A stretch of DNA of 13,804 nt, from positions 1 through 13,804 of IMG/VR virus record IMGVR_UViG_2711768056_000004, one strand, 5' to 3'. The notes beneath the pieces were generated by a model. That model had not been told where the DNA came from. It saw only the letters and a program-made list of their open reading frames with translations, and did not search any database. The DNA comes from a virus (taxonomy: Duplodnaviria > Heunggongvirae > Uroviricota > Caudoviricetes). The position numbers and the translations under genes were made by a program. Positions 15 to 9,126 of the stretch are shown piece by piece. How positions within the stretch are numbered: position 1 is the first letter of the stretch; each line of letters opens with the position of its first letter.

Positions 15-175
15 TTTATCAGTTCGCTCCCATCCGTACCAGTCCGCAAAATCCCCTGAATATCAAGCCTTCCGTAGATTAACAGTTCGTAATGGTTCGC
101 GTCAGATCGTTGACAGCCGCACTCCATGACGGGTAAAAAGTGGATAAAATAATTTTACCCACCGGATTTTTACCC
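15..175. other. attL arm between the tRNA 3' end and int; candidate integrase arm-binding region
   Basis: Non-coding stretch directly after the tRNA CCA end and before int. Contains a direct repeat TTTTACCCA at 153..161 and 168..176 abutting the int ATG, and CAGTTCG at 22..28 and 93..99. The function of these repeats is inferred, not demonstrated. Confidence 0.35.
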
Positions 176-1333
176 ATGCTCACCGTTAAGCAGATTGAAG
201 CAGCAAGGCCGAAAGAAAAACCATACCGCCTTCTCGATGGTAATGGCCTGTACCTTTATGTCCCTGTATCCGGGAAAAAGGTATGGCAGCTTCGCTACAA
301 GATTGACGGTAAGGAGAAAATCCTGACCGTCGGAAAATATCCGCTTATGACTTTGCAAGAGGCAAGGGATAAAGCATGGACTGCGAGGAAAGACATCTCG
401 GTTGGCATCGATCCGGTAAAGGCGAAAAAGGCTTCGTCTAACAACAATTCCTTTAGTGCGATTTACAAGGAATGGTACGAGCACAAGAAGCAAGTCTGGT
501 CAGTAGGCTATGCAACTGAACTTGCCAAAATGTTTGATGACGACATTTTACCCATCATCGGCGGTCTTGAGATTCAGGATATTGAGCCGATGCAACTGTT
601 GGAAGTAATCCGCAGATTTGAAGATCGCGGTGCAATGGAGCGAGCCAACAAAGCCCGCAGAAGATGCGGCGAGGTTTTCCGTTACGCTATTGTCACTGGT
701 AGGGCTAAATATAACCCGGCACCTGACCTTGCTGACGCCATGAAGGGATACCGCAAGAAGAACTTCCCGTTTCTTCCTGCAGACCAGATCCCTGCATTCA
801 ACAAAGCACTGGCAACATTTTCAGGAAGTATCGTATCGCTCATTGCGACCAAAGTTTTACGCTACACAGCCCTAAGAACGAAAGAGCTTCGTTCCATGCT
901 ATGGAAGAACGTCGATTTTGAAAACAGGATTATCACCATCGACGCCAGTGTGATGAAAGGACGCAAAATTCATGTGGTTCCTATGTCAGACCAGGTGGTT
1001 GAACTTCTCACTACGCTAAGCTCAATCACCAAACCAGTATCAGAGTTTGTTTTTGCCGGGCGCAACGATAAGAAGAAGCCAATCTGCGAGAACGCGGTAC
1101 TGCTTGTGATCAAACAAATCGGCTATGAGGGTCTGGAAAGCGGTCACGGATTCAGGCATGAATTCAGCACGATTATGAACGAGCACGAATGGCCTGCTGA
1201 TGCTATTGAAGTGCAACTGGCACATGCCAACGGCGGATCTGTGCGTGGGATTTACAACCATGCTCAGTATCTCGATAAGCGCAGAGAAATGATGCAGTGG
1301 TGGGCGGACTGGCTTGATGAAAAGGTGGAGTGA
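176..1333 (+). CDS. int: Tyrosine site-specific integrase, P4 / IntS-like family
   Basis: 385-codon ORF from ATG 176; the ORF track's 397-aa version starts at an upstream in-frame GTG at 140. N-terminus MLTVKQIEAARPKEKPYRLLDGNGLYLYV...KKVWQLRYKIDGKEK...GKYP is the P4-integrase-type N-terminal domain. C-terminal part carries tyrosine-recombinase signature segments (ALRTKELR, HGFRHEF, RGIYNHAQY). Sits immediately downstream of a tRNA 3' end. No clear Shine-Dalgarno precedes either candidate start. Confidence 0.9.
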   Translation: MLTVKQIEAARPKEKPYRLLDGNGLYLYVPVSGKKVWQLRYKIDGKEKILTVGKYPLMTLQEARDKAWTARKDISVGIDPVKAKKASSNNNSFSAIYKEWYEHKKQVWSVGYATELAKMFDDDILPIIGGLEIQDIEPMQLLEVIRRFEDRGAMERANKARRRCGEVFRYAIVTGRAKYNPAPDLADAMKGYRKKNFPFLPADQIPAFNKALATFSGSIVSLIATKVLRYTALRTKELRSMLWKNVDFENRIITIDASVMKGRKIHVVPMSDQVVELLTTLSSITKPVSEFVFAGRNDKKKPICENAVLLVIKQIGYEGLESGHGFRHEFSTIMNEHEWPADAIEVQLAHANGGSVRGIYNHAQYLDKRREMMQWWADWLDEKVE

Positions 1334-1466: not shown

Positions 1467-1829
1467 ATGTTAAAGCTATTTGCAAAGTACACCTCGATTG
1501 GTGTGCTGAACACACTTATACATTGGGTGGTTTTTGGTGTATGTATCTATGCCGCGCACACCAATCAGGCTCTTGCAAACTTCGCAGGTTTCGTTGTGGC
1601 TGTGAGCTTTAGCTTCTTCGCGAATGCAAAATTCACATTCAAAGCTTCGACTACAACGATGCGCTACATGTTATATGTAGGATTCATGGGAACACTGAGT
1701 GCTACTGTTGGATGGGCTGCCGATAAATGTGCACTTCCTCCAATTGTCACTCTTGTCACCTTCTCCGCCATCAGCCTAGTGTGCGGTTTCGTCTATTCAA
1801 AGTTCATTGTCTTTAGGGATGCGAAATGA
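1467..1829 (+). CDS. gtrA: GtrA-family bactoprenol-linked glucose translocase (flippase), O-antigen glucosylation
   Basis: 120-aa small hydrophobic protein with four predicted TM segments ([73 protein letters not shown]). Size and sequence are typical of GtrA. Stop overlaps the gtrB start (ATGA at 1826..1829). Confidence 0.9.
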
Positions 1830-2755
1830 AGATATCTCTGGTCGTTCCTGTCTTCAACGAAGAGGAAGCGATACCTATTTTTTATAAAACGGTACGTGAA
1901 TTCGAAGAGTTGAAGCCATATGAAGTGGAAATTGTTTTTATAAATGATGGTAGCAAAGACGCTACGGAGTCAATCATTAACGCTCTGTCCGTTTCAGATC
2001 CTCTAGTTGTTCCGCTGTCATTTACACGAAACTTTGGTAAAGAACCAGCCCTGTTTGCAGGGCTTGATAATGCAACCGGGGAAGCGGTCATTCCAATTGA
2101 TGTTGATCTGCAAGACCCTATCAATGTCATCCCTCACCTCATTCAAAAATGGCAGGATGGCGCTGATATGGTTCTGGCTAAGAGAACAGACCGATCTACC
2201 GATGGAAGGCTAAAGCGCAAATCGGCTGAGTGGTTCTATAAGCTACACAACAAGATTAGCAACCCAAAAATCGAAGAGAACGTGGGTGATTTTCGCCTGA
2301 TGTCGCGAGAAGTTGTTGAAAACATTAAATTGCTTCCTGAGCGCAATCTTTTCATGAAAGGCGTCTTGTCATGGGTTGGCGGTAAAATTGATGTTGTTGA
2401 GTATGCAAGAGCTGAACGCGTTGCCGGCAACTCAAAATTCAATGGGTGGAAGCTATGGAATCTGGCACTGGAAGGCATAACAAGCTTCTCAACTTTCCCA
2501 TTGCGCATGTGGACATACATCGGACTTGCTGTCGCCAGCCTGTCATTCATTTATGGCGCGTGGATGATTTTAGATAAGATTCTTTTCGGTAATAGTGTTC
2601 CTGGATACCCGTCACTGTTGGTTTCCATACTTTTCCTTGGCGGCATTCAATTGATTGGGATTGGTGTCCTTGGTGAATACATTGGACGCATATACATAGA
2701 AACCAAAAAAAGACCAAAGTACATACTAAAGAAAGGTGAAAATAGGAATGTTTAA
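1826..2755 (+). CDS. gtrB: GtrB-family bactoprenol (undecaprenyl-phosphate) glucosyltransferase, GT2
   Basis: 309 aa. N-terminal GT-A/GT2 catalytic domain ([23 protein letters not shown]-type motif [10 protein letters not shown]) followed by two C-terminal TM helices ([21 protein letters not shown]; [25 protein letters not shown]). Translationally coupled to gtrA. Confidence 0.92.
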
Positions 2756-4163
2756 TTCTAAATATTTTTACATACCATTATCAATTATATTTATATTTTG
2801 TTACCCAATAGTGTCTGCTGATGTCCTTTATAGGGATGATGTGGCAAGGTCTGTATATTCATTTTCTGCATGGGGAGGGCTTGGTAGGCCACTTTCTGAT
2901 TTTGTAATGCATATTTTTTCTCTTAATTTTGATTTATTACCAAGCGCTGCTCCTCTTCCGTTGTTCTTTGGTATATTCATTGCATCAGCAATAATTTATT
3001 ATATTTGTAATTATCTTGTTGAAAAAGAAGACTCTCTGCAGATATCCATTATGCTCACAATCATTTTTGTGAGTCCATTGTTTATACAAAACGTGTCTTT
3101 TCAATTTGACGCATTAACGATGATTTTAGCAAATTCATTATGTATGCTGTCATTCTTTGTATTTGACATTAGATCATTTCCAAAGTCATTATTATCCATT
3201 GTTTCTTTATTTTCATGCTTAAGCTTATACCAGCCTTGCGCAAACATATTTATATCATTAATTGCATACAATGCTTTATTTGGTAATGGGAAAAACAAAT
3301 CATATCATCTTGCACTGACATTCGTAGTAACATATGCATTATATTATGTCACTATGTTTTATATAATGAAATATGGTGCTGACAATAGATCTATAATGGT
3401 GTCATTCGCAGACATACCATCATCTCTTTATGAATCTATTAATAAGACTTTTAAATATATAGAACCCATTGGGATATCTTTTTTGATTCCTGTTTACATT
3501 GGATTGTTATCCTATTTTGTTTGTTATGTTAAAAAGGTCAAACATCAGTTATCCCTAGGGTTTTTAGAGTGCTCATCCAATTTATTATCACCATTAGCGC
3601 TATTATTAGCATTGCCTGGACCAGCATTTTTATTAAAGGAAGGGATTACAGATATAAGGGTTCTATCAGGCGCGTCAGCATCCATAGCGATAGTTATTTT
3701 TTCCATATATAAATTATTCGGAAAAAAATCTTTTTATTTTATTTCTGTAGTAATGTTGTTTATCACCATAACCACTTCATTCCAATTTTCAAATGCCATA
3801 AAAGAGCAAAGGAAATATGAGGAATTTGTCATGGAGATGGTGGCTAATGATTTGGGAAGGCTTGACTTTAACGGCGAGGTATACACTTATGGAAGGATAT
3901 ACGACTCTCCTATTACTTGGAAAATGATTGAGGCAACACCGTTCCTCAAATTTGTGTATAGCCCTGCTGTACCATGGATTGCTGTATCAATGATGCAGCA
4001 ATTAAGTGTTAAGAATTTGGCACCATGGATAAAAACAGTACAAGTTAACAAGTTAAATGAGGTTTGTGAAAAAAAATCATCACCAATAATAAAAACAAGA
4101 TATTATAATGTATTTAAAATTGGTGAAGATATTATCGTCGTGTATGGCGATAGAGTTTGTTAA
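2748..4163 (+). CDS. gtrC: Serotype-specific O-antigen glucosyltransferase (third gene of gtr operon, GtrC / Gtr-type); polytopic membrane protein, specificity undetermined
   Basis: 471 aa from ATG 2748, with AAGGTGA 8 nt upstream; the ORF track starts at in-frame GTG 2736. Overlaps the gtrB 3' end. Highly hydrophobic multi-pass protein with a less hydrophobic C-terminal ~100 aa. Strongly AT-rich compared with gtrB and the late genes, as is typical for the horizontally exchanged type-specific gtr gene. Confidence 0.8.
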
Positions 4164-4173
4164 AATTAAAAAA

Positions 4174-4198
4174 GGCCCAAAACATCGGGCCATTTTTT
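4174..4198. terminator. Bidirectional rho-independent terminator between the convergent gtr operon and tailspike gene
   Basis: Hairpin GGCCC (4174..4178), 8-nt loop, GGGCC (4187..4191), flanked by an A-run (4168..4173) and a T-run (4193..4198). Lies 11 nt after the gtrC stop and overlaps the tailspike stop codon. Confidence 0.7.
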
Positions 4199-6065
4199 AT
4201 GTGTAGTTAGCAATAAGTCTGCAAAACCATTGAGTGCCGCCGTTTATTGTTGAAAGCCTAAATACCTGCGTTCCTGAAAATGAAAGCGACGGTGTATTTG
4301 ATGCAAGTTTAACGTTAGACCCGAATGTTATTGTTTTTGATGCCGCCGAATAAACAGCTAATGTAACTTCTACATACCCAGTTAACGCATTTGACAATGC
4401 TGCTGGGGTTATTGTTACATCGCCAGTTACCGTTGCTGACACATACGCTGCATTAGAAAAGTCAGGCGCATACGATGCACCGGGGGTGTCAAATTTCGGA
4501 GACGCTACAAGCAGGGGAACACCTACGCTTCTCCTAAAAATTGTGCTATTGCTAAACATATCGTACTCTATCCCAACAAAGTTCTTAGCTGCCAGGATGT
4601 TTGTAAACGACTGGTCTATAGAGTAAATATGGTTTATCAACCTTGCTGTCCATGCTGGTGAGTTTGAGTTTCCACACTCAACAAATGAGCAGTTAACGCT
4701 ACCAACGGCAAACGGCATTAATGATGCAGTGTAAGAAGACAGTCCCGCAGCATTGAATGCATTCATATTCACGAATGTCTGACATTGAGAAAACGTATTA
4801 CCCGATGCTCCCGAATCGACAAAGAAACCAATACCGCCGTTAATATAACCATCTACCGAATCTAAATTAGCCTTCGTGTAGTCCCATTTTGACGGAGAGT
4901 CTGCAAAGCATTGGTTGAATGAGTTGTTTATCGAGTTTTGCACAACAAAGCAACACTTCATTCTTGAGTTTTGGTCAGCTACCGAGTCGTCATACATACC
5001 CCAGTTATGTACTTTATCGATACGATTGTTACCGCCACCCCTCACCCACGTCCCAAATCGGAAATAACGACCTTCACCCATGCTTACCTGATGGTCGCTG
5101 CCTTCAATAATATGGGCTTGACTTAGGGGGTTCGTAGGTTTTAATACACCTACCGCGTAAAACTTCATGAGATGAACACCCATGCCGCCAGCGATATGAA
5201 TGCCATGACCATCAACGTTGGCTACGTAAATACCATCTAACTTGTTGGCATAACCATCAGATATTTTAAATCCATTAACAGTCTTTGCGCGGGCGTCAAT
5301 TAAAAGATTGCTAATGTGCCCAGCGTATTGATTACCTGTTCCTTTATCGCATTTAACAGCATACCCAGAAGAATCCGCTATGAAGTCATCCGTGAGATAT
5401 ACCCCTCCAAATTCTGCATCTATGCTTACATCACCGTAAACATGTAATGTTGTGTTTATGGGGTATTTCTTTCCATTTAATCTGACAACTTTGCATACAG
5501 TATTTGGTTGTATCCAGTCTGGATGACCAGCAGCAGTGCTTGGGGAGTGCTCTAGCCCGGTTAAAGATGCGGCATAATCAATCGCATCCTGTAATGTTGT
5601 ATACATATCAGGATTGACGAATATAACATTTTTTAGCGTACCCCCAACCGTATCATCTGCGTAATCAACTGATTTATCGAATCCAACTAATCCAGCGCCA
5701 TTGCTCCCTTCAAGCTGTTGCCTTAACTGATCTGGGTCGTATTTTGCAATGTCAGGGAAGTAGAACTGCTGCGATCCATAGGCGTCGTAAACAGCCATGC
5801 TGTAATTCTGCACAGTAACGAACTTTGATATCTGCCCGTTGTAAACAGGATACCCACCCGCGTTAATGACTATCGGCTGAGCAGTTGGAATCAGATCTCC
5901 AGTTTCACTTTCAATATAAACAGGGATTTGGTTCGCTGGGATTGTAGGATCGGTATCTGGTAGCCCAAGATAGATTTTACCGTTGGCATTTGCTTTAAAT
6001 GAGCGTGCCAGCGTGAAAAGCTGCGAAGGCATCCCTACCACTAAGTTTGCGGTGATATCTGACAT
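4197..6065 (-). CDS. Tailspike protein (P22 gp9-like N-terminal head-binding domain fused to a divergent receptor-binding/O-antigen-depolymerase domain)
   Basis: 622 aa from the ATG at 6065, which has GGAG 7 nt upstream on the - strand. N-terminus [52 protein letters not shown]...VINAGG..VYNGQ...YDPDQ closely matches the remembered P22 tailspike head-binding domain. The remaining ~500 aa show no resemblance to the P22 catalytic domain. The ORF track's 638-aa version adds 16 codons that I consider non-coding. Confidence 0.88.
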
Positions 6066-6153
6066 TTCATTGCTCCAGACGAATGATATGATGCAACCAT
6101 GATGTGATTGCATACAGAAATGGTACTATTGAGTATTTATCCAGTAGGTTACG
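6066..6153. promoter_or_regulatory. Divergent tailspike / mnt intergenic control region with candidate operator
   Basis: 88-bp gap between divergent starts. Inverted repeat ATGCAA (6091..6096) - N11 - TTGCAT (6108..6113), plus direct repeat TGATnTGAT at 6083..6091 and 6101..6109. Positioned like the P22 immI Pant/Pmnt operator region, but operator identity is inferred. Confidence 0.4.
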
Positions 6154-6453
6154 ATGCCATTCCACCCAACTGGTGAGGCATCAAGGATGTACAGCAAATA
6201 CGACGAGGCGCAGTTTCACTTGAGACTTCCGCATGAACTCCACGAGAAAATTAAACAGCGTGCGAAGATGAATAACAGGTCGCTGAACTCAGAGATAATT
6301 GCAGCGATTGAAGAATCATTGAATAAACAAAGCTCTGCATCAGTTTGCATTGACGATGCAGATCGTATGGCAGAACAACAATCTGATATGGTTAAGAAAA
6401 TGGTTTTTGAAACGCTTAAGACCATGTATAGCAATAATAAAAAGGAAACATAG
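6154..6453 (+). CDS. mnt: Mnt-like ribbon-helix-helix (Arc/MetJ family) transcriptional repressor
   Basis: Translation FHLRLPHELHEKIKQRAKMNNRSLNSEIIAAIEESL...DADRMAEQQSDMVKKMVFETLKTMY aligns along its length with remembered P22 Mnt (FNFRMPMEVREKLKFRAEANGRSMNSELLQIVQDAL...DAERLADEQSELVKKMVFDTLKDLY). Start is ambiguous: ATG 6154 gives 99 aa, ATG 6187 gives 88 aa, closer to the 83-aa Mnt. Confidence 0.8.
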   Translation: MPFHPTGEASRMYSKYDEAQFHLRLPHELHEKIKQRAKMNNRSLNSEIIAAIEESLNKQSSASVCIDDADRMAEQQSDMVKKMVFETLKTMYSNNKKET

Positions 6454-6523
6454 AAATCTAGTTTCCGGCTAAAATGGCATTGCTTTCATGATATCCTGTG
6501 AAAAACTAAGGAGAGTTAACCAT

Positions 6524-7009
6524 ATGAAAAAATCACTGTTAATTATCCCGCTTCTGCTGGTTGGATGCGCAAAAGTAAGTGACTATCAAGCAAGTTGCGA
6601 ACAACGCTATCAAAAGCTTAGCGATATGGCTAATTGCCTTGATGCCAGAGTGAAGAACGACTCACGCATGGCATCAGCACCAACACCTAAGCTATATGTC
6701 CTTGCTGCAAAGATGCTCGGGCAAGGTGTCGATGAAGGCAAGATAAGTGACGCACAGGCAAGACTTGAGCTTCAGAATCTTTATGTTCAATTACAAAGCC
6801 AAGAACAAGCCCAACAAATAGCACAAAGCCAAGCATTCCAGCAGGCTTTATTGAATTATCAGGCTGTAAACACAATGCAAGCGATCGAGCAAAAAGCGCG
6901 CCAGCCTGTTATAACTCAACCTTACCCAACGCGTGTTGACACCTATACAAACTGCAATTCAGGATTTGGAAATACCGTCACATGCAACAGTAGCAGCAAC
7001 ATTAGATAA
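6524..7009 (+). CDS. Predicted lipoprotein with Q-rich coiled-coil-like segment and Cys/Asn/Ser-rich C-terminus; function unknown (moron; candidate superinfection-exclusion factor)
   Basis: 161 aa from ATG 6524, with AAGGAG at 6508..6513. The ORF track's upstream start at 6488 adds 12 residues before the signal peptide. MKKSLLIIPLLLVGC is a signal peptide with a lipobox (LVGC). Followed by a Q/A-rich stretch (LQNLYVQLQSQEQAQQIAQSQAFQQALLNYQ) and tail TYTNCNSGFGNTVTCNSSSNIR. Co-oriented 70 bp downstream of mnt. Confidence 0.6.
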   Translation: MKKSLLIIPLLLVGCAKVSDYQASCEQRYQKLSDMANCLDARVKNDSRMASAPTPKLYVLAAKMLGQGVDEGKISDAQARLELQNLYVQLQSQEQAQQIAQSQAFQQALLNYQAVNTMQAIEQKARQPVITQPYPTRVDTYTNCNSGFGNTVTCNSSSNIR

Positions 7010-7011
7010 AG

Positions 7012-9126
7012 CTATTCATATTCATTCATACCGCTTAACGAGGCGACAATACCAGCTCTCGACAAGCGATTGAATTCATCGCTACCAATAGCATCGCGTA
7101 TTGCTTTTACGGCGGCCTTATTTGCCATAAATCTGCGTTCCGCCGCCGCTAATGCTTCTTTGCTTCCGCCTGCTCTTACTGCTTTGGTGGCTTCCTGAAC
7201 AGCTTTCTCTATCGCATATCGACCACTACGTGTGGTGGCAATTTTAGATACAGCGCCTTTTAACCCAGCGCCAACTAAAGCACCCGCGGCAGCGCCTGCA
7301 ATACCCCCTCCAGCGCCACCAACAATGGCACCTGATGTTGAGTTGGCAATTGCATTTAACACTGTTGATGTGACGTTGGATAAACCAGCATCCAGATCGC
7401 GTAGTACATTGGCAGTTCTCCCTGTTCTTTCAATATACTGCTGAGGTTTCACTGCCGCTCTTGCAAGAGTGCCATATGCATCAGCAATTCTTCCAAGTTC
7501 TGAGGAATATCTGCTAATGGCTTTTACATTTTGTGGGGTAAGTATCCCTGCGATATGGTTAATTCCTGCTGCATCAGATTTGCCACCACGTACACCATGC
7601 GAGATAGCATCCTGCAACATTGATGATATAGCAGGAACACGCTCTGATTCTGGCAGCGCGCGGATCATAGAATGGAATCCAGCAGGACCATTAAGACCTT
7701 TAGCTGACGATGATTGAAGAGATTTTACTCCATTCGTAATCAGTGCATCTGTTGCCAAATCACGCCCAAAAACAGACTCTGCACTCTCTTGTGCGGATAG
7801 CCTCGCTTTAGACAGATCATTAGCTTTTTGCCAGTCATCAAAAAATCCGCCGTTTTCCGCCATTGTGCGCATATCATCAGTAATTGCCCGACGTATTTCC
7901 CCTGCTCTCCTTGCCGCATTTGCCTCTCCACTACGCTTATATTTTTGCTCCGCATCAGCAAATTTCGCTCTCCATGCTTTCATGCCATCAAATGTTACTC
8001 CACCTTGATTGTTTGCCTGAACAAACTGTTTCATTTCAGGAGTAAGCGGTATGCCAGCAGATCGCTCTGCCTGAATAACGGCATTACCATTTAGCATTCT
8101 TGCTTTTTGATTTGGCATTGTTGACCGCACGTCATCCCATGCCGCGCGCTCAGCATCCTTCATCTGATCAAGATTTTGAAGAATCCTTTGTTTTATAGCC
8201 GCACTTTTTTCTGATGCCGTTCCAGATGCGGCCCCAAATTCATCAAGGTTTCGACTTAACTTTGATGATATTTCGTTAAATGCTGCCTGATGGGCATCCT
8301 GAACAATCCCTGGTGTTGATGCCAATGCGCCTTCGGCTTGTGCAATTCCACGACTTCCAGATCGCATTCCTGGTGTTAATGCGTTTATATCAATTCCAGC
8401 AGACTCAGCCGCTTTTGCTACATCTTCGGACACATTAGCGGCCTGACTGGCAATTGACTGACGCCCAGCACCTGACTTTGCCATCCTGGAAACATCATTA
8501 GCAGAATTCAGTGCTGCACCACCAAGAGCCTGTGAAACCCTTGGCGCAATAACGCGCCCGACACCTGAAAGAACGCCTTGAGCACCAATATTGATACCAC
8601 CGTTAATGGCAGCATTTTGTGCAAAATCACCCTCCTGATTTGCAGCATCAGCAAGAGAACCGGCAATCATGTTTCCTGCGGAACCGATGTCTCCTGCGAG
8701 CTTTGCTGGCGCTCCAGCAGCTTTTGCTGCTGTGCCAATTGGCAGGAGATACCCACCAATTGTTTCACCGGCTTGCGCGTAAGGGTCTGTCGGTCGATCG
8801 ACTGGACGATAGACATCATCCAAAACCTTGGGGCCACCAAGCCCATGGCTGATTGCATTAATCAGACTTGCGCCACCCTGCAATACGTCAAATGGTATGT
8901 TTACCAGACCACGGCCAGCCTGTTCTGCAATTTGCCCTGCGCTTTGACCACCAGTGAGCCAGTCAGTGGCTTTTCCTACCAGAGATTGTTCTTCTGGCTG
9001 CGATTGGTTTTGAGTGGATTGATCACCAGAAGACAGCATCTGAGCAATGCGACGTGCTCCCTCAGTATCGCCGGCAGCATCAGCATTTCTTAACGCCGTC
9101 ATCAACTGTTCGCGACTATAGGCCAT
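7012..9126 (-). CDS. Ejection (DNA-transfer / E) protein, P22 gp16-like by position
   Basis: 704-aa ORF, last gene of the late block before the immI-like cassette, in the position of P22 gene 16. Low-complexity Gly/Ala-rich hydrophobic segment near the C-terminus ([27 protein letters not shown]). Start overlaps the upstream gene stop as TAATG. Assignment rests mainly on synteny and size. Confidence 0.65.

Follow-up and report, generated by a model that had tools for sequence, protein, structure and literature searches.

Why mnt should persist in P22-like phages that carry no antirepressor gene is a question left by the phage L paper, and the locus described here raises it again. The window, by which we mean the whole analyzed stretch of 13,804 nucleotides, is the right end of a P22-like (Lederbergvirus) prophage in which an mnt gene and a lipoprotein gene, both on the + strand, fill the interval between gene 16 and the tailspike gene. 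The reading that we favor, at roughly even odds (a probability of about 0.5), is that these are two independent morons: Mnt would regulate its own synthesis and gate transcription toward the tailspike gene, and the lipoprotein would serve as an envelope factor of the lysogen, possibly in superinfection exclusion. Within this reading, DNA binding by Mnt, promoter usage, and the function of the lipoprotein are matters that we infer.

Organization of the gene 16–tailspike interval

The genes of the interval and its two neighbors are as follows.

4197..6065, - strand: tailspike gene, 622 aa (Pfam Head_binding, 3.3e-56), bordering the interval
6187..6453, + strand: mnt, 88 aa, with an N-terminal ribbon-helix-helix (RHH) domain and a C-terminal Mnt tetramerization helix
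6524..7009, + strand: lipoprotein gene, 161 aa, with signal peptide MKKSLLIIPLLLVGC, lipobox LVGC, and Ala at +2
7012..9126, - strand: gene for a gene 16-type DNA ejection protein (Pfam Phage_P22_gp16 in homologous loci), bordering the interval

The maximal open reading frames on the + strand span 6154-6453 and 6488-7009; homology and PGAP calls in relatives indicate that mnt in fact begins at 6187 and the lipoprotein gene at 6524. The tailspike protein, whose N-terminal domain is of the P22 head-binding type, starts at 6065 rather than 6113, with MSDITANL matching the PGAP calls in a relative and the translation. As a preliminary description of this DNA had stated, the mnt-lipoprotein pair is oriented against the late operon, with gene 16 and the tailspike gene on the - strand; the lipoprotein gene and gene 16 converge, with their stop codons 2 bp apart. 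The reported absence of arc and ant likewise stands: tblastn searches of the window with P22 and other Arc, Ant, Bro-N, and SieA queries found no arc, ant, or sieA, the sole match being the RHH domain of mnt. No Rfam family was detected anywhere in the window.

In position, orientation, and variable slot content the interval corresponds to an 'ant moron', the name given to a variable set of genes between the homologs of gene 16 and tailspike that morphogenesis does not require and that is for the most part transcribed apart from the late operon (PMC2629481). It would comprise two independent prophage-type morons in that slot. The slot had been called a known hotspot for morons and defense genes, a characterization borne out by the 'ant moron' itself (PMC2629481), SieA (PMC10883804), and STnc6030 (PMC7067206). 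Mnt-only 'ant morons' have already been described in phages L, ST64T, and ST104 (PMC2629481, PMC8022706), and the present arrangement is a common, well-populated variant of a described region.

The Mnt homolog

The product of mnt had been taken for an unmistakable Mnt homolog, and the searches agree. Its RHH domain matches Pfam Arc (6.6e-16) and PDB 1MNT (3.4e-18 across residues 6-78), its tetramerization domain matches Pfam Repressor_Mnt (6.6e-11, residues 68-92 of the 99-aa ORF) and the PDB tetramerization peptide 1QEY (2.6e-6), and P22 Mnt aligns with it at 46% identity over 76 aa (E 3e-27). Judged from sequence, its assignment as a true Mnt homolog is solid, the two proteins sharing the RHH domain and the C-terminal tetramerization helix. 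The DNA-reading strand is QFHLRLP, as against HFNFRMP in P22 Mnt, and these residues diverge from those of P22 in step with the operator described below. The gene is intact in 80 of 80 loci and is under purifying selection (median dN/dS 0.11). We rejected a type II toxin-antitoxin reading of the RHH protein: no toxin partner accompanies it, the adjoining gene encodes a secreted lipoprotein with no match to a toxin family, and weak HicB, FitA, and RelB-like matches span only the generic RHH domain.

The control region between tailspike and mnt

The following elements were located in and around the sequence separating the two divergent genes.

6066..6186, no strand assigned: divergent control region of 121 bp between tailspike and mnt, homologous to the P22 Pmnt/Pant/O_mnt region
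6084..6092, + strand: alternative extended -10 element TGaTATGAT, conserved in the 121-bp variants
6091..6113, - strand: tailspike mRNA leader hairpin, 9-bp stem and 5-nt loop, ending 25 nt before the start codon
6112..6126, no strand assigned: candidate Mnt operator ATACAGAAATGGTAC, aligning with P22 O_mnt GGTCC-N5-GGACC
6129..6155, + strand: putative positional homolog of P22 Pmnt, TTGAGT-15-TACGAT
6132..6160, - strand: Pant-type promoter relic into the tailspike gene, ATGGCA-17-AATACT, weak by consensus

Homology of this region was established by alignment with P22, Gally, VSe13, and Sf101. Its length is 121 bp in 72 of 80 loci, and it is about 12-fold less variable than the third codon positions of mnt (minor-allele fraction 0.007, against 0.091 at those positions and 0.159 at third positions of the tailspike gene).

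A candidate dyad lies at the position of P22 O_mnt, between putative divergent promoter elements, and its form differs: (A/G)TACC-N5-GGTAC (consensus ATACC-GAAAT-GGTAC) replaces the GGTCC-N5-GGACC of P22. Of 154 loci, 153 contain the motif, each a single time and 74-77 nt 5' of the mnt ATG; the strict form accounts for 145 of the 154 and has 2 matches elsewhere in 1.38 Mb. It is retained over at least five different flanking contexts, including swapped tailspike leaders. The 5-N5-5 symmetry is imperfect (4/5) and weaker still in the window copy, a minority variant with a C-to-A change at 6116 in one half-site that occurs in 6 of 154 loci. Clean palindromes occupy the operator position in phage L, where the equivalent site is the perfect palindrome AAGACCACGGTGGTCTT, in Gally, and in locus L012.

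The candidate operator occurs once in the window. Across the 154 loci it was never found upstream of arc, ant, Bro-N, or the lipoprotein gene, even where an antirepressor gene is present in the same locus, and no second operator or ant-like target was found in the window, in sister loci, or in 49.6 kb plus 15.6 kb of a related prophage. The rest of the related prophage, where an arc or ant target of this Mnt was also sought, contains no arc, ant, or Bro-N gene, and its KilA-N gene has no operator close by. That Mnt must control something other than ant, as had been proposed, agrees with the lack of ant and with an operator confined to the tailspike side.

The 23-bp palindrome at 6091-6113, which on the + strand reads as the imperfect palindrome ATGCAACCAtgatgTGATTGCAT, was rejected as the Mnt operator. 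It is missing from loci that have other tailspike leaders yet the same Mnt, and its variation fits an RNA hairpin on the minus strand, with U.G changing to C-G or U-A and a C-G to U.G, and 99.4% of cells pairing. The hairpin is unique in the window and in the related prophage.

Promoters were assigned by homology and our own scoring, the promoter and terminator scan having performed at chance level; the Pant-like and Pmnt-like hexamers are both weak, and the scan listed neither. The Pant-type relic was identified by its score and its positional homology to P22 Pant (TTGACA-17-TATATT), from which we infer that it may be active. Unlike its P22 counterpart, this promoter, which faces away from mnt, reads directly into the tailspike gene and scores as weak against the consensus. 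In the Pmnt homolog the spacer falls 2 bp short of its length in VSe13, Gally, and P22. A further alternative upstream element for mnt, CTGACA-17-AATGAT, lies at 6059-6087, and one may speculate that it or the element at 6084-6092 drives mnt from further upstream.

Taken together in our preferred reading, mnt would encode a tetrameric RHH repressor of a distinct tailspike-proximal lineage that most likely binds the single dyad at 6112-6126, between its own promoter and the tailspike leader. Bound there, it would silence the weak Pant-type promoter and set the level of its own transcription, as P22 Mnt does at Pant/Pmnt. The tailspike gene is the probable downstream target of the control region. 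Published work on P22 holds that its 'ant moron', possibly with Mnt and Arc, affects the amount of late-promoter transcription that reaches the tailspike gene (PMC2629481).

The spacer between mnt and the lipoprotein gene

The 70-bp spacer and the end of mnt contain three elements.

6433..6466, - strand: hairpin resembling a terminator, GGAAAC...GTTTCC with a U-run after it, on the late-operon strand and overlapping the mnt stop codon
6489..6497, + strand: candidate extended -10 promoter TGaTATCCT of the lipoprotein gene
6508-6513, + strand: lipoprotein ribosome-binding site AAGGAG

The hairpin emerged from RNA folding and direct reading and was not listed by the stricter terminator scan, which listed no terminator in the window; it is no terminator in the mnt direction. 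Because none was found in that direction, mnt transcripts probably read through into the lipoprotein gene, for which a separate extended -10 promoter also seems to exist. The spacer is conserved, and its commonest variant alters only the 'n' of TGnTATCCT. Mosaic breakpoints were placed in the final codons of mnt and 17 nt ahead of the ATG of the lipoprotein gene.

Distribution and modularity

Positions 6000-7100 of the window are covered to at least 80% in 106 of 5426 complete E. coli genomes, which is a lower bound for the pair in such genomes; 351 show a partial match. E. coli O26:H11 11368 and MLI106K1 are among the lysogens with this arrangement. The preliminary description had treated mnt and the lipoprotein gene as one cassette, and their distribution does not support this. 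The lipoprotein gene occupies the sieA slot of prophages in many Enterobacterales, with or without mnt: it occurs alone in Yersinia ruckeri, with other genes in Xenorhabdus and Serratia, and beside a complete mnt-arc-ant in one locus, L012. The same Mnt lacks the lipoprotein in about 37 of 80 loci, and the pair is together in about 43 of 80. Since each occurs without the other, mnt and the lipoprotein gene are independent mosaic modules.

Each module nonetheless has a fixed position. Across genera the lipoprotein gene always adjoins gene 16 in convergent orientation, and among loci that carry either gene it is never found together with sieA. This Mnt type is always tailspike-proximal and divergent from the tailspike gene, which adjoins mnt in nearly all of 157 loci. 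Beyond Mnt, toward gene 16, an arc-like/Bro-N antirepressor unit is present in 51 of 77 sister-type loci, and these 51 often carry a second RHH repressor gene too. The proposal that the pair replaces immI is therefore not sustained: with the operator only on the tailspike side despite the arc-like/Bro-N units, this Mnt is a tailspike-side paralog and not the mere remainder of an arc-ant deletion.

The lipoprotein and its expression

From its lipobox, which fits the pattern L-[ASV]-[GA]-C, the protein is predicted to be lipidated through an Lgt/LspA/Lol-type signal, and Ala at +2 leads us to expect sorting to the outer membrane. Among 36 homologs the lipobox Cys is invariant and the preceding Gly is conserved in at least 90%. 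Two Cys pairs are also conserved. The N-terminal domain is helical, a Gln-rich helix is present, and the C-terminal part is a beta-hairpin; the structure model is of low confidence (pLDDT 63.6) and contains no transmembrane segment beyond the signal peptide. The protein matches PHROG 6067, a family of unknown function, at 4.6e-108, and is under strong purifying selection (median dN/dS 0.046). No significant match was found in Pfam, PADLOC, a PDB sequence search, or Foldseek against PDB and viral structures, and the only NCBIfam match, to GspK, was rejected as spurious (18.8 bits against a cutoff of 130).

Expression can be followed in the Gally prophage, whose orthologous lipoprotein is 97% identical to that of the window. 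In the E. coli LF82 lysogen this ortholog is transcribed at about 4.5 times the prophage median, and in macrophages the mnt, tailspike, and lipoprotein RNAs of Gally rise 6- to 40-fold as gene 16 stays flat (PMC9928086). The region is therefore transcribed independently of the late operon, an observation that applies to the Gally orthologs only. The joint rise of mnt and tailspike RNAs is not expected from simple repression, and deletion of mnt in Gally leaves macrophage survival unchanged (PMC9928086). The suggestion that the lipoprotein is expressed in the lysogen thus holds for the Gally ortholog; homology with the window begins 17 nt before the ATG, and because the region upstream differs, Gally lipoprotein expression is not safely transferable to the window.

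In our preferred reading the exported, lipidated, outer membrane-sorted protein most likely acts on the envelope of the lysogen, with superinfection exclusion as the leading guess and host fitness or stress as the main alternative. The latter, a possible though somewhat unlikely explanation, casts the lipoprotein as a host-fitness factor for serum, macrophage, or envelope-stress resistance, akin to lambda Bor, and leaves Mnt as we have described it. Expression of the Gally ortholog rises about 6-fold in macrophages, and under culture-medium conditions it exceeds the LB level (PMC9928086); the protein has no match to known defense proteins; and the wider family, 239 representatives in a profile search, includes one distant member in a non-phage context with ordinary chromosomal neighbors. 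A general fitness role is harder to reconcile with a gene that, in every Enterobacterales context examined, lies strictly in the sieA slot beside the ejection-protein genes, with its exclusivity with SieA, and with the other products of known function from this slot, which target superinfecting phage (PMC10883804, PMC7067206).

Comparison with known systems

In P22 as in the window, mnt opposes the late operon from a position between gene 16 and the tailspike gene. P22 immI further contains arc, ant, and the sar RNA, all three of which are lacking here, and P22 Mnt controls the adjoining arc-ant operon, so maintaining lysogeny against the antirepressor, whereas window Mnt is without such a target. 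Phages L, ST64T, ST104, Sf101, IME10, and Gally share the order tailspike, leader, operator, divergent mnt, small gene, gene 16. The Mnt specificity type of the window differs from theirs, as does the cargo 3' of mnt: orf62 in L, a hydrophobic ORF of 25 codons in Sf101-like loci, and the 161-aa lipoprotein here.

T5 Llp, phi80/N15 Cor, TP-J34 Ltp, and lambda Bor are small phage-encoded lipoproteins that act at the envelope. The window protein resembles them by kind only, with no sequence, family, or fold similarity detected. P22 SieA, a superinfection exclusion protein that stops P22-like phages from injecting their DNA (PMC10883804), is expressed from the prophage, and its gene, too, directly follows gene 16 in convergent orientation. 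Whereas SieA carries the motif FxRYPxEAxxFNK and is a multi-pass inner-membrane protein, the lipobox lipoprotein of the window shows no sequence similarity to it.

A bolder version of our reading, which we consider unlikely, would have this Mnt lineage govern a second tailspike route independent of the late operon, made up of the Pant-derived promoter, the operator, and the leader hairpin; the lipoprotein would be a new exclusion factor of the outer membrane or periplasm that replaces SieA non-homologously, blocking the ejection-protein conduit or a secondary receptor of P22-like phages.

It is distinctly unlikely that RNA is the main product of the region, a transcript of mnt and the lipoprotein gene, antisense to the late operon, that would extend into gene 16 at its 3' end and block a sequence-matched superinfecting phage in the manner of STnc6030. 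That antisense RNA, which is expressed in the lysogen of a P22-like prophage, lies at the same gene 16/tailspike junction and confers complete immunity to BTP1; the tailspike gene there is transcribed from secondary promoters as well (PMC7067206). In the window, no terminator was found between the lipoprotein and gene 16 stops. STnc6030 is, however, non-coding, whereas the window region encodes two conserved proteins: purifying selection acts at the protein level on both ORFs, and lipobox, Cys pairs, and Mnt domains have all been kept between genera despite divergence of the DNA, so that an RNA role could only be additional.

The targets of Mnt bear on two further explanations, both very unlikely. 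Incoming P22-like phages with the same operator could have their antirepressor promoter shut off by the orphan Mnt, which would spare the resident prophage from induction. In P22, Mnt made by the prophage does work in trans on the genome of a superinfecting phage (PMC2629481), and antirepressor genes are common in sister loci. In the 154 loci the operator nevertheless lies only beside mnt and the tailspike gene, never 5' of arc, ant, or Bro-N, and the related prophage offers no other copy. No better placed is direct repression of the lipoprotein gene by Mnt in a tight operon serving as a regulated exclusion module, which the preliminary description had entertained. The two genes share a strand and are often found together, 70 bp apart with no terminator between them in that direction, so that co-transcription from the mnt promoter is possible; direct control is opposed by the absence of an operator-like site from 6454-6523 and the rest of the window, by the occurrence of each gene without the other, and by the two mosaic breakpoints. 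Least probable of all is a decaying remnant, with mnt a functionless leftover of a deleted immI and the lipoprotein an unrelated passenger, a possibility that the phage L paper raised for L's own mnt-like gene and that the missing arc and ant and the weak promoter hexamers would suit, but which is at odds with an intact mnt under purifying selection, a control region more conserved than coding sequence, and the persistence of the same Mnt type beside the tailspike gene in loci with an arc-like/Bro-N unit.

Implications for P22-like prophages

The gene 16–tailspike slot is a proven source of anti-phage functions, among them SieA, immI, and the antisense RNA STnc6030. Should the lipoprotein prove to exclude phages at the outer membrane, prophage defense would gain a new protein family, a point of relevance to the host range of Lederbergviruses in therapeutic use. 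The survival of mnt without an antirepressor in L, ST64T, Sf101, and Gally would be explained if a separate tailspike promoter is gated by this Mnt lineage.

Locus organization

Two plus-strand genes lie between those for the tailspike and gene 16 in a P22-like (Lederbergvirus) prophage, whose right end forms the window. Their starts follow homology and PGAP calls in relatives, rather than the maximal ORFs from which the coordinates of the preliminary description were taken.

Genes in the window
140-1333, + strand, integrase
1467-4163, + strand, gtrA, gtrB and GtrII-type gtrC
4197-6065, - strand, tailspike
6187-6453, + strand, mnt (88 aa)
6524-7009, + strand, lipoprotein gene (161 aa)
7012-9126, - strand, gene 16, then 20, 7, 14, needle and gene 10, all - strand

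In E. coli MLI106K1, a related prophage with the same mnt-lipoprotein pair is adjacent to a tRNA-Arg gene and to intS. Of 5426 complete E. coli genomes, 106 match at least 80% of window positions 6000-7100, and 351 show a partial match. The variable region between gene 16 and the tailspike was called the "ant moron" by Villafane et al., who reported that ST64T, ST104 and Para1 retain only mnt and one unknown gene (PMC2629481). This kind of arrangement was thus already described, the pair is one common occupant of a variable region already known, and the view of the slot as a hotspot holds. Over the whole window, the best complete E. coli genome matches just 77% at 94% identity. Both the GtrII-family gtrC-like gene (2736-4163) and the tailspike's receptor-binding portion (4197-5700) are unlike their counterparts in the closest complete genomes, which suggests an O-antigen specificity module absent from that E. 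coli genome collection.

A tailspike-side lineage of Mnt

Assignment of the 6187-6453 product to Mnt is secure from sequence comparison: it matches 1MNT and 1QEY, the two Mnt fragments of solved structure, is 46% identical to P22 Mnt, and scores 6.6e-16 against the Pfam family Arc and 6.6e-11 against Repressor_Mnt. Searches of the window by tblastn with several queries returned no Arc, Ant, Bro-N or SieA, in agreement with the original reading of a Mnt homologue lacking arc and ant. Among 80 IMG/VR loci with the same Mnt (85-97% identity), the gene is intact in all 80, with a median dN/dS of 0.11, and P22-type Arc, Ant and SieA occur in none.

A second search, with the Mnt of VSe13 as query, yielded 77 new loci. 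The VSe13 protein shares the N-terminus MYSKYDEAQFHLRL with the window Mnt and has a different C-terminus; in the 77 loci this type is again directly divergent from the tailspike. Between it and gene 16, 51 of the 77 carry an antirepressor-type gene, usually a Bro-N antirepressor and often joined by an arc-like gene plus another gene for an RHH repressor; 14 loci have SieA as well. The tailspike-side Mnt lineage is therefore a separate tailspike-proximal paralogue and not simply a remnant of arc-ant deletion. In one compared locus, L109 (4635-6557; likewise L101, L104 and L107), a late-strand unit that separates the tailspike-side mnt from gene 16 comprises an arc-like gene and genes for a Bro-N protein of 236 aa and two further proteins of 269 and 73 aa, with a second, longer RHH repressor gene (106 aa) running divergently from it. 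This unit is immI-like, with a non-P22 antirepressor.

A candidate operator in a conserved control region

The region upstream of mnt aligns with Pmnt/Pant/O_mnt of P22. Clean palindromes occupy the O_mnt position in phage Gally (AGACCACTGTGGTCT), in locus L012 (GAACCACCGTGGTTC) and in phage L (AAGACCACGGTGGTCTT), and in the tailspike-side Mnt lineage the same position holds a candidate operator, (A/G)TACC-N5-GGTAC. In 153 of 154 loci it is 74-77 nt upstream of the mnt start codon (strict form in 145). It occurs once per locus and is kept where the tailspike leader to one side has been exchanged; only two strict matches fall elsewhere in 1.38 Mb. It was never found near ant genes in the loci examined and is absent from the rest of the related prophage. 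The proposal that Mnt has a different target here holds. The candidate operator is also missing upstream of the window lipoprotein gene, leaving no sign of the direct control of that gene by Mnt that had been considered. The DNA-reading strand, QFHLRLP in the window Mnt versus HFNFRMP in P22, fits an altered specificity. In the window itself, the left half-site carries a minority C-to-A variant at 6116, seen in 6 of 154 loci; this A weakens the dyad of the presumed operator and could alter Mnt control in this sublineage.

The 121-bp intergenic region (6066-6186) has a minor-allele fraction of 0.007, versus 0.091 at third codon positions of mnt and 0.159 at those of the tailspike gene; it is densely functional.

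Predicted promoters
Pant homologue, toward the tailspike, ATGGCA-17-AATACT, weak
Pmnt homologue, 15-bp spacer
6084-6092, extended -10 TGaTATGAT, alternative for mnt
6489-6497, extended -10 TGaTATCCT, candidate for the lipoprotein gene; its only common variant alters the free position

A 23-bp palindrome at 6091-6113 was rejected as operator; because loci with other tailspike leaders lack it, it belongs to the tailspike leader module, being specific to the leader type of the window. The three stem positions that vary retain pairing only in minus-strand RNA (U.G to C-G or U-A; C-G to U.G), where 99.4% of cells are paired. There is too little variation to support an RNA element statistically, which leaves it as a lead only; the conserved minus-strand stem-loop may stabilise the mRNA or mark a site of processing. 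A second minus-strand hairpin (6433-6466, GGAAAC...GTTTCC plus a U-run) overlaps the mnt stop and is terminator-like only for transcripts in the late-operon direction, so mnt transcripts can run on into the lipoprotein gene. It could restrict how much non-antiterminated transcription reaches the tailspike gene; at the corresponding position, a bidirectional terminator is annotated in phage L.

The lipoprotein gene as a separate module

The pair had been taken for one cassette replacing immI (mnt-arc-ant). The lipoprotein gene is present in about 43 of the 80 loci with the same Mnt and missing from about 37; Sf101 and IME10 have the same mnt without it, and VSe13 and Gally have it together with a mnt that is different or diverged, the two being separated by an additional gene. 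It stands alone in the slot in Yersinia ruckeri, among five genes in Xenorhabdus, with a Bro-N gene in Serratia, and in L012 beside a complete mnt-arc-ant, exactly at the P22 sieA position. It adjoins gene 16, convergently, in every context examined, and never co-occurs with SieA in the loci surveyed. Thus mnt and the lipoprotein gene are two modules rather than one cassette, and the antirepressor-type genes of the VSe13-query loci speak against a simple replacement of immI.

Other small genes were observed in the slot. In mnt-only loci (L059 at ~4277-4355, Sf101 and ~35 others), mnt is followed within 10-20 nt by a hydrophobic ORF of 25 codons (MQRDMLNIAFYIFGFCTFLVFAKLF) that lacks annotation, has a GGAGG ribosome-binding site and ends just before gene 16, so a small cargo gene of membrane type is part of these arrangements too. 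Gally gene 14 (2464-2883 of its locus), on the late-operon strand between the lipoprotein gene and mnt, itself encodes a lipoprotein (MKRIIGVVAGAILLSGC...) and, in LF82, is transcribed more highly than any other gene of the region. Envelope-targeted genes accumulate in the slot.

Expression and possible function of the lipoprotein

The lipoprotein has the lipobox LVGC, Ala at +2 and two conserved Cys pairs, and its gene has a median dN/dS of 0.046. In its structural model (mean pLDDT 63.6), a helical N-terminal domain of moderate confidence is accompanied by a Gln-rich helix and a C-terminal hairpin; searches for a fold, family or defence-system match found none. In a set of 5.8 billion proteins the family has 94 clusters, none of them named save for two generic or spurious labels, and a profile search recovers 239 representatives of a wider lipoprotein family, likewise unnamed, one of which has a non-phage chromosomal setting.

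In the E. coli LF82 lysogen, transcription of the Gally orthologue (97% amino-acid identity) reaches ~4.5x the prophage median. Inside macrophages, expression of mnt, the tailspike gene and the lipoprotein gene increases 6- to 40-fold while that of gene 16 does not change, and deletion of mnt leaves macrophage survival unchanged (PMC9928086). The region including the tailspike can therefore be transcribed independently of the late operon in Gally, whose Mnt is of another specificity type and whose sequence upstream of the lipoprotein gene differs from that of the window. The BTP1 tailspike likewise has secondary promoters, and an antisense RNA of the same junction, STnc6030, provides immunity to BTP1 (PMC7067206). 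In the window, the convergent stops of the lipoprotein gene and gene 16 (7009-7012) are 2 bp apart with no terminator found between them, so each transcript must enter the other gene antisense, as with the BTP1 RNA.

Position, orthologue expression and the precedent of phage lipoproteins and SieA make an exclusion factor our leading guess for the lipoprotein; a role in host fitness instead is a serious rival. Within this known variable region, the new points are a tailspike-side Mnt lineage with its own candidate operator, a 121-bp control region that is extremely conserved, and the recognition of the lipoprotein as an alternative occupant of the sieA slot.
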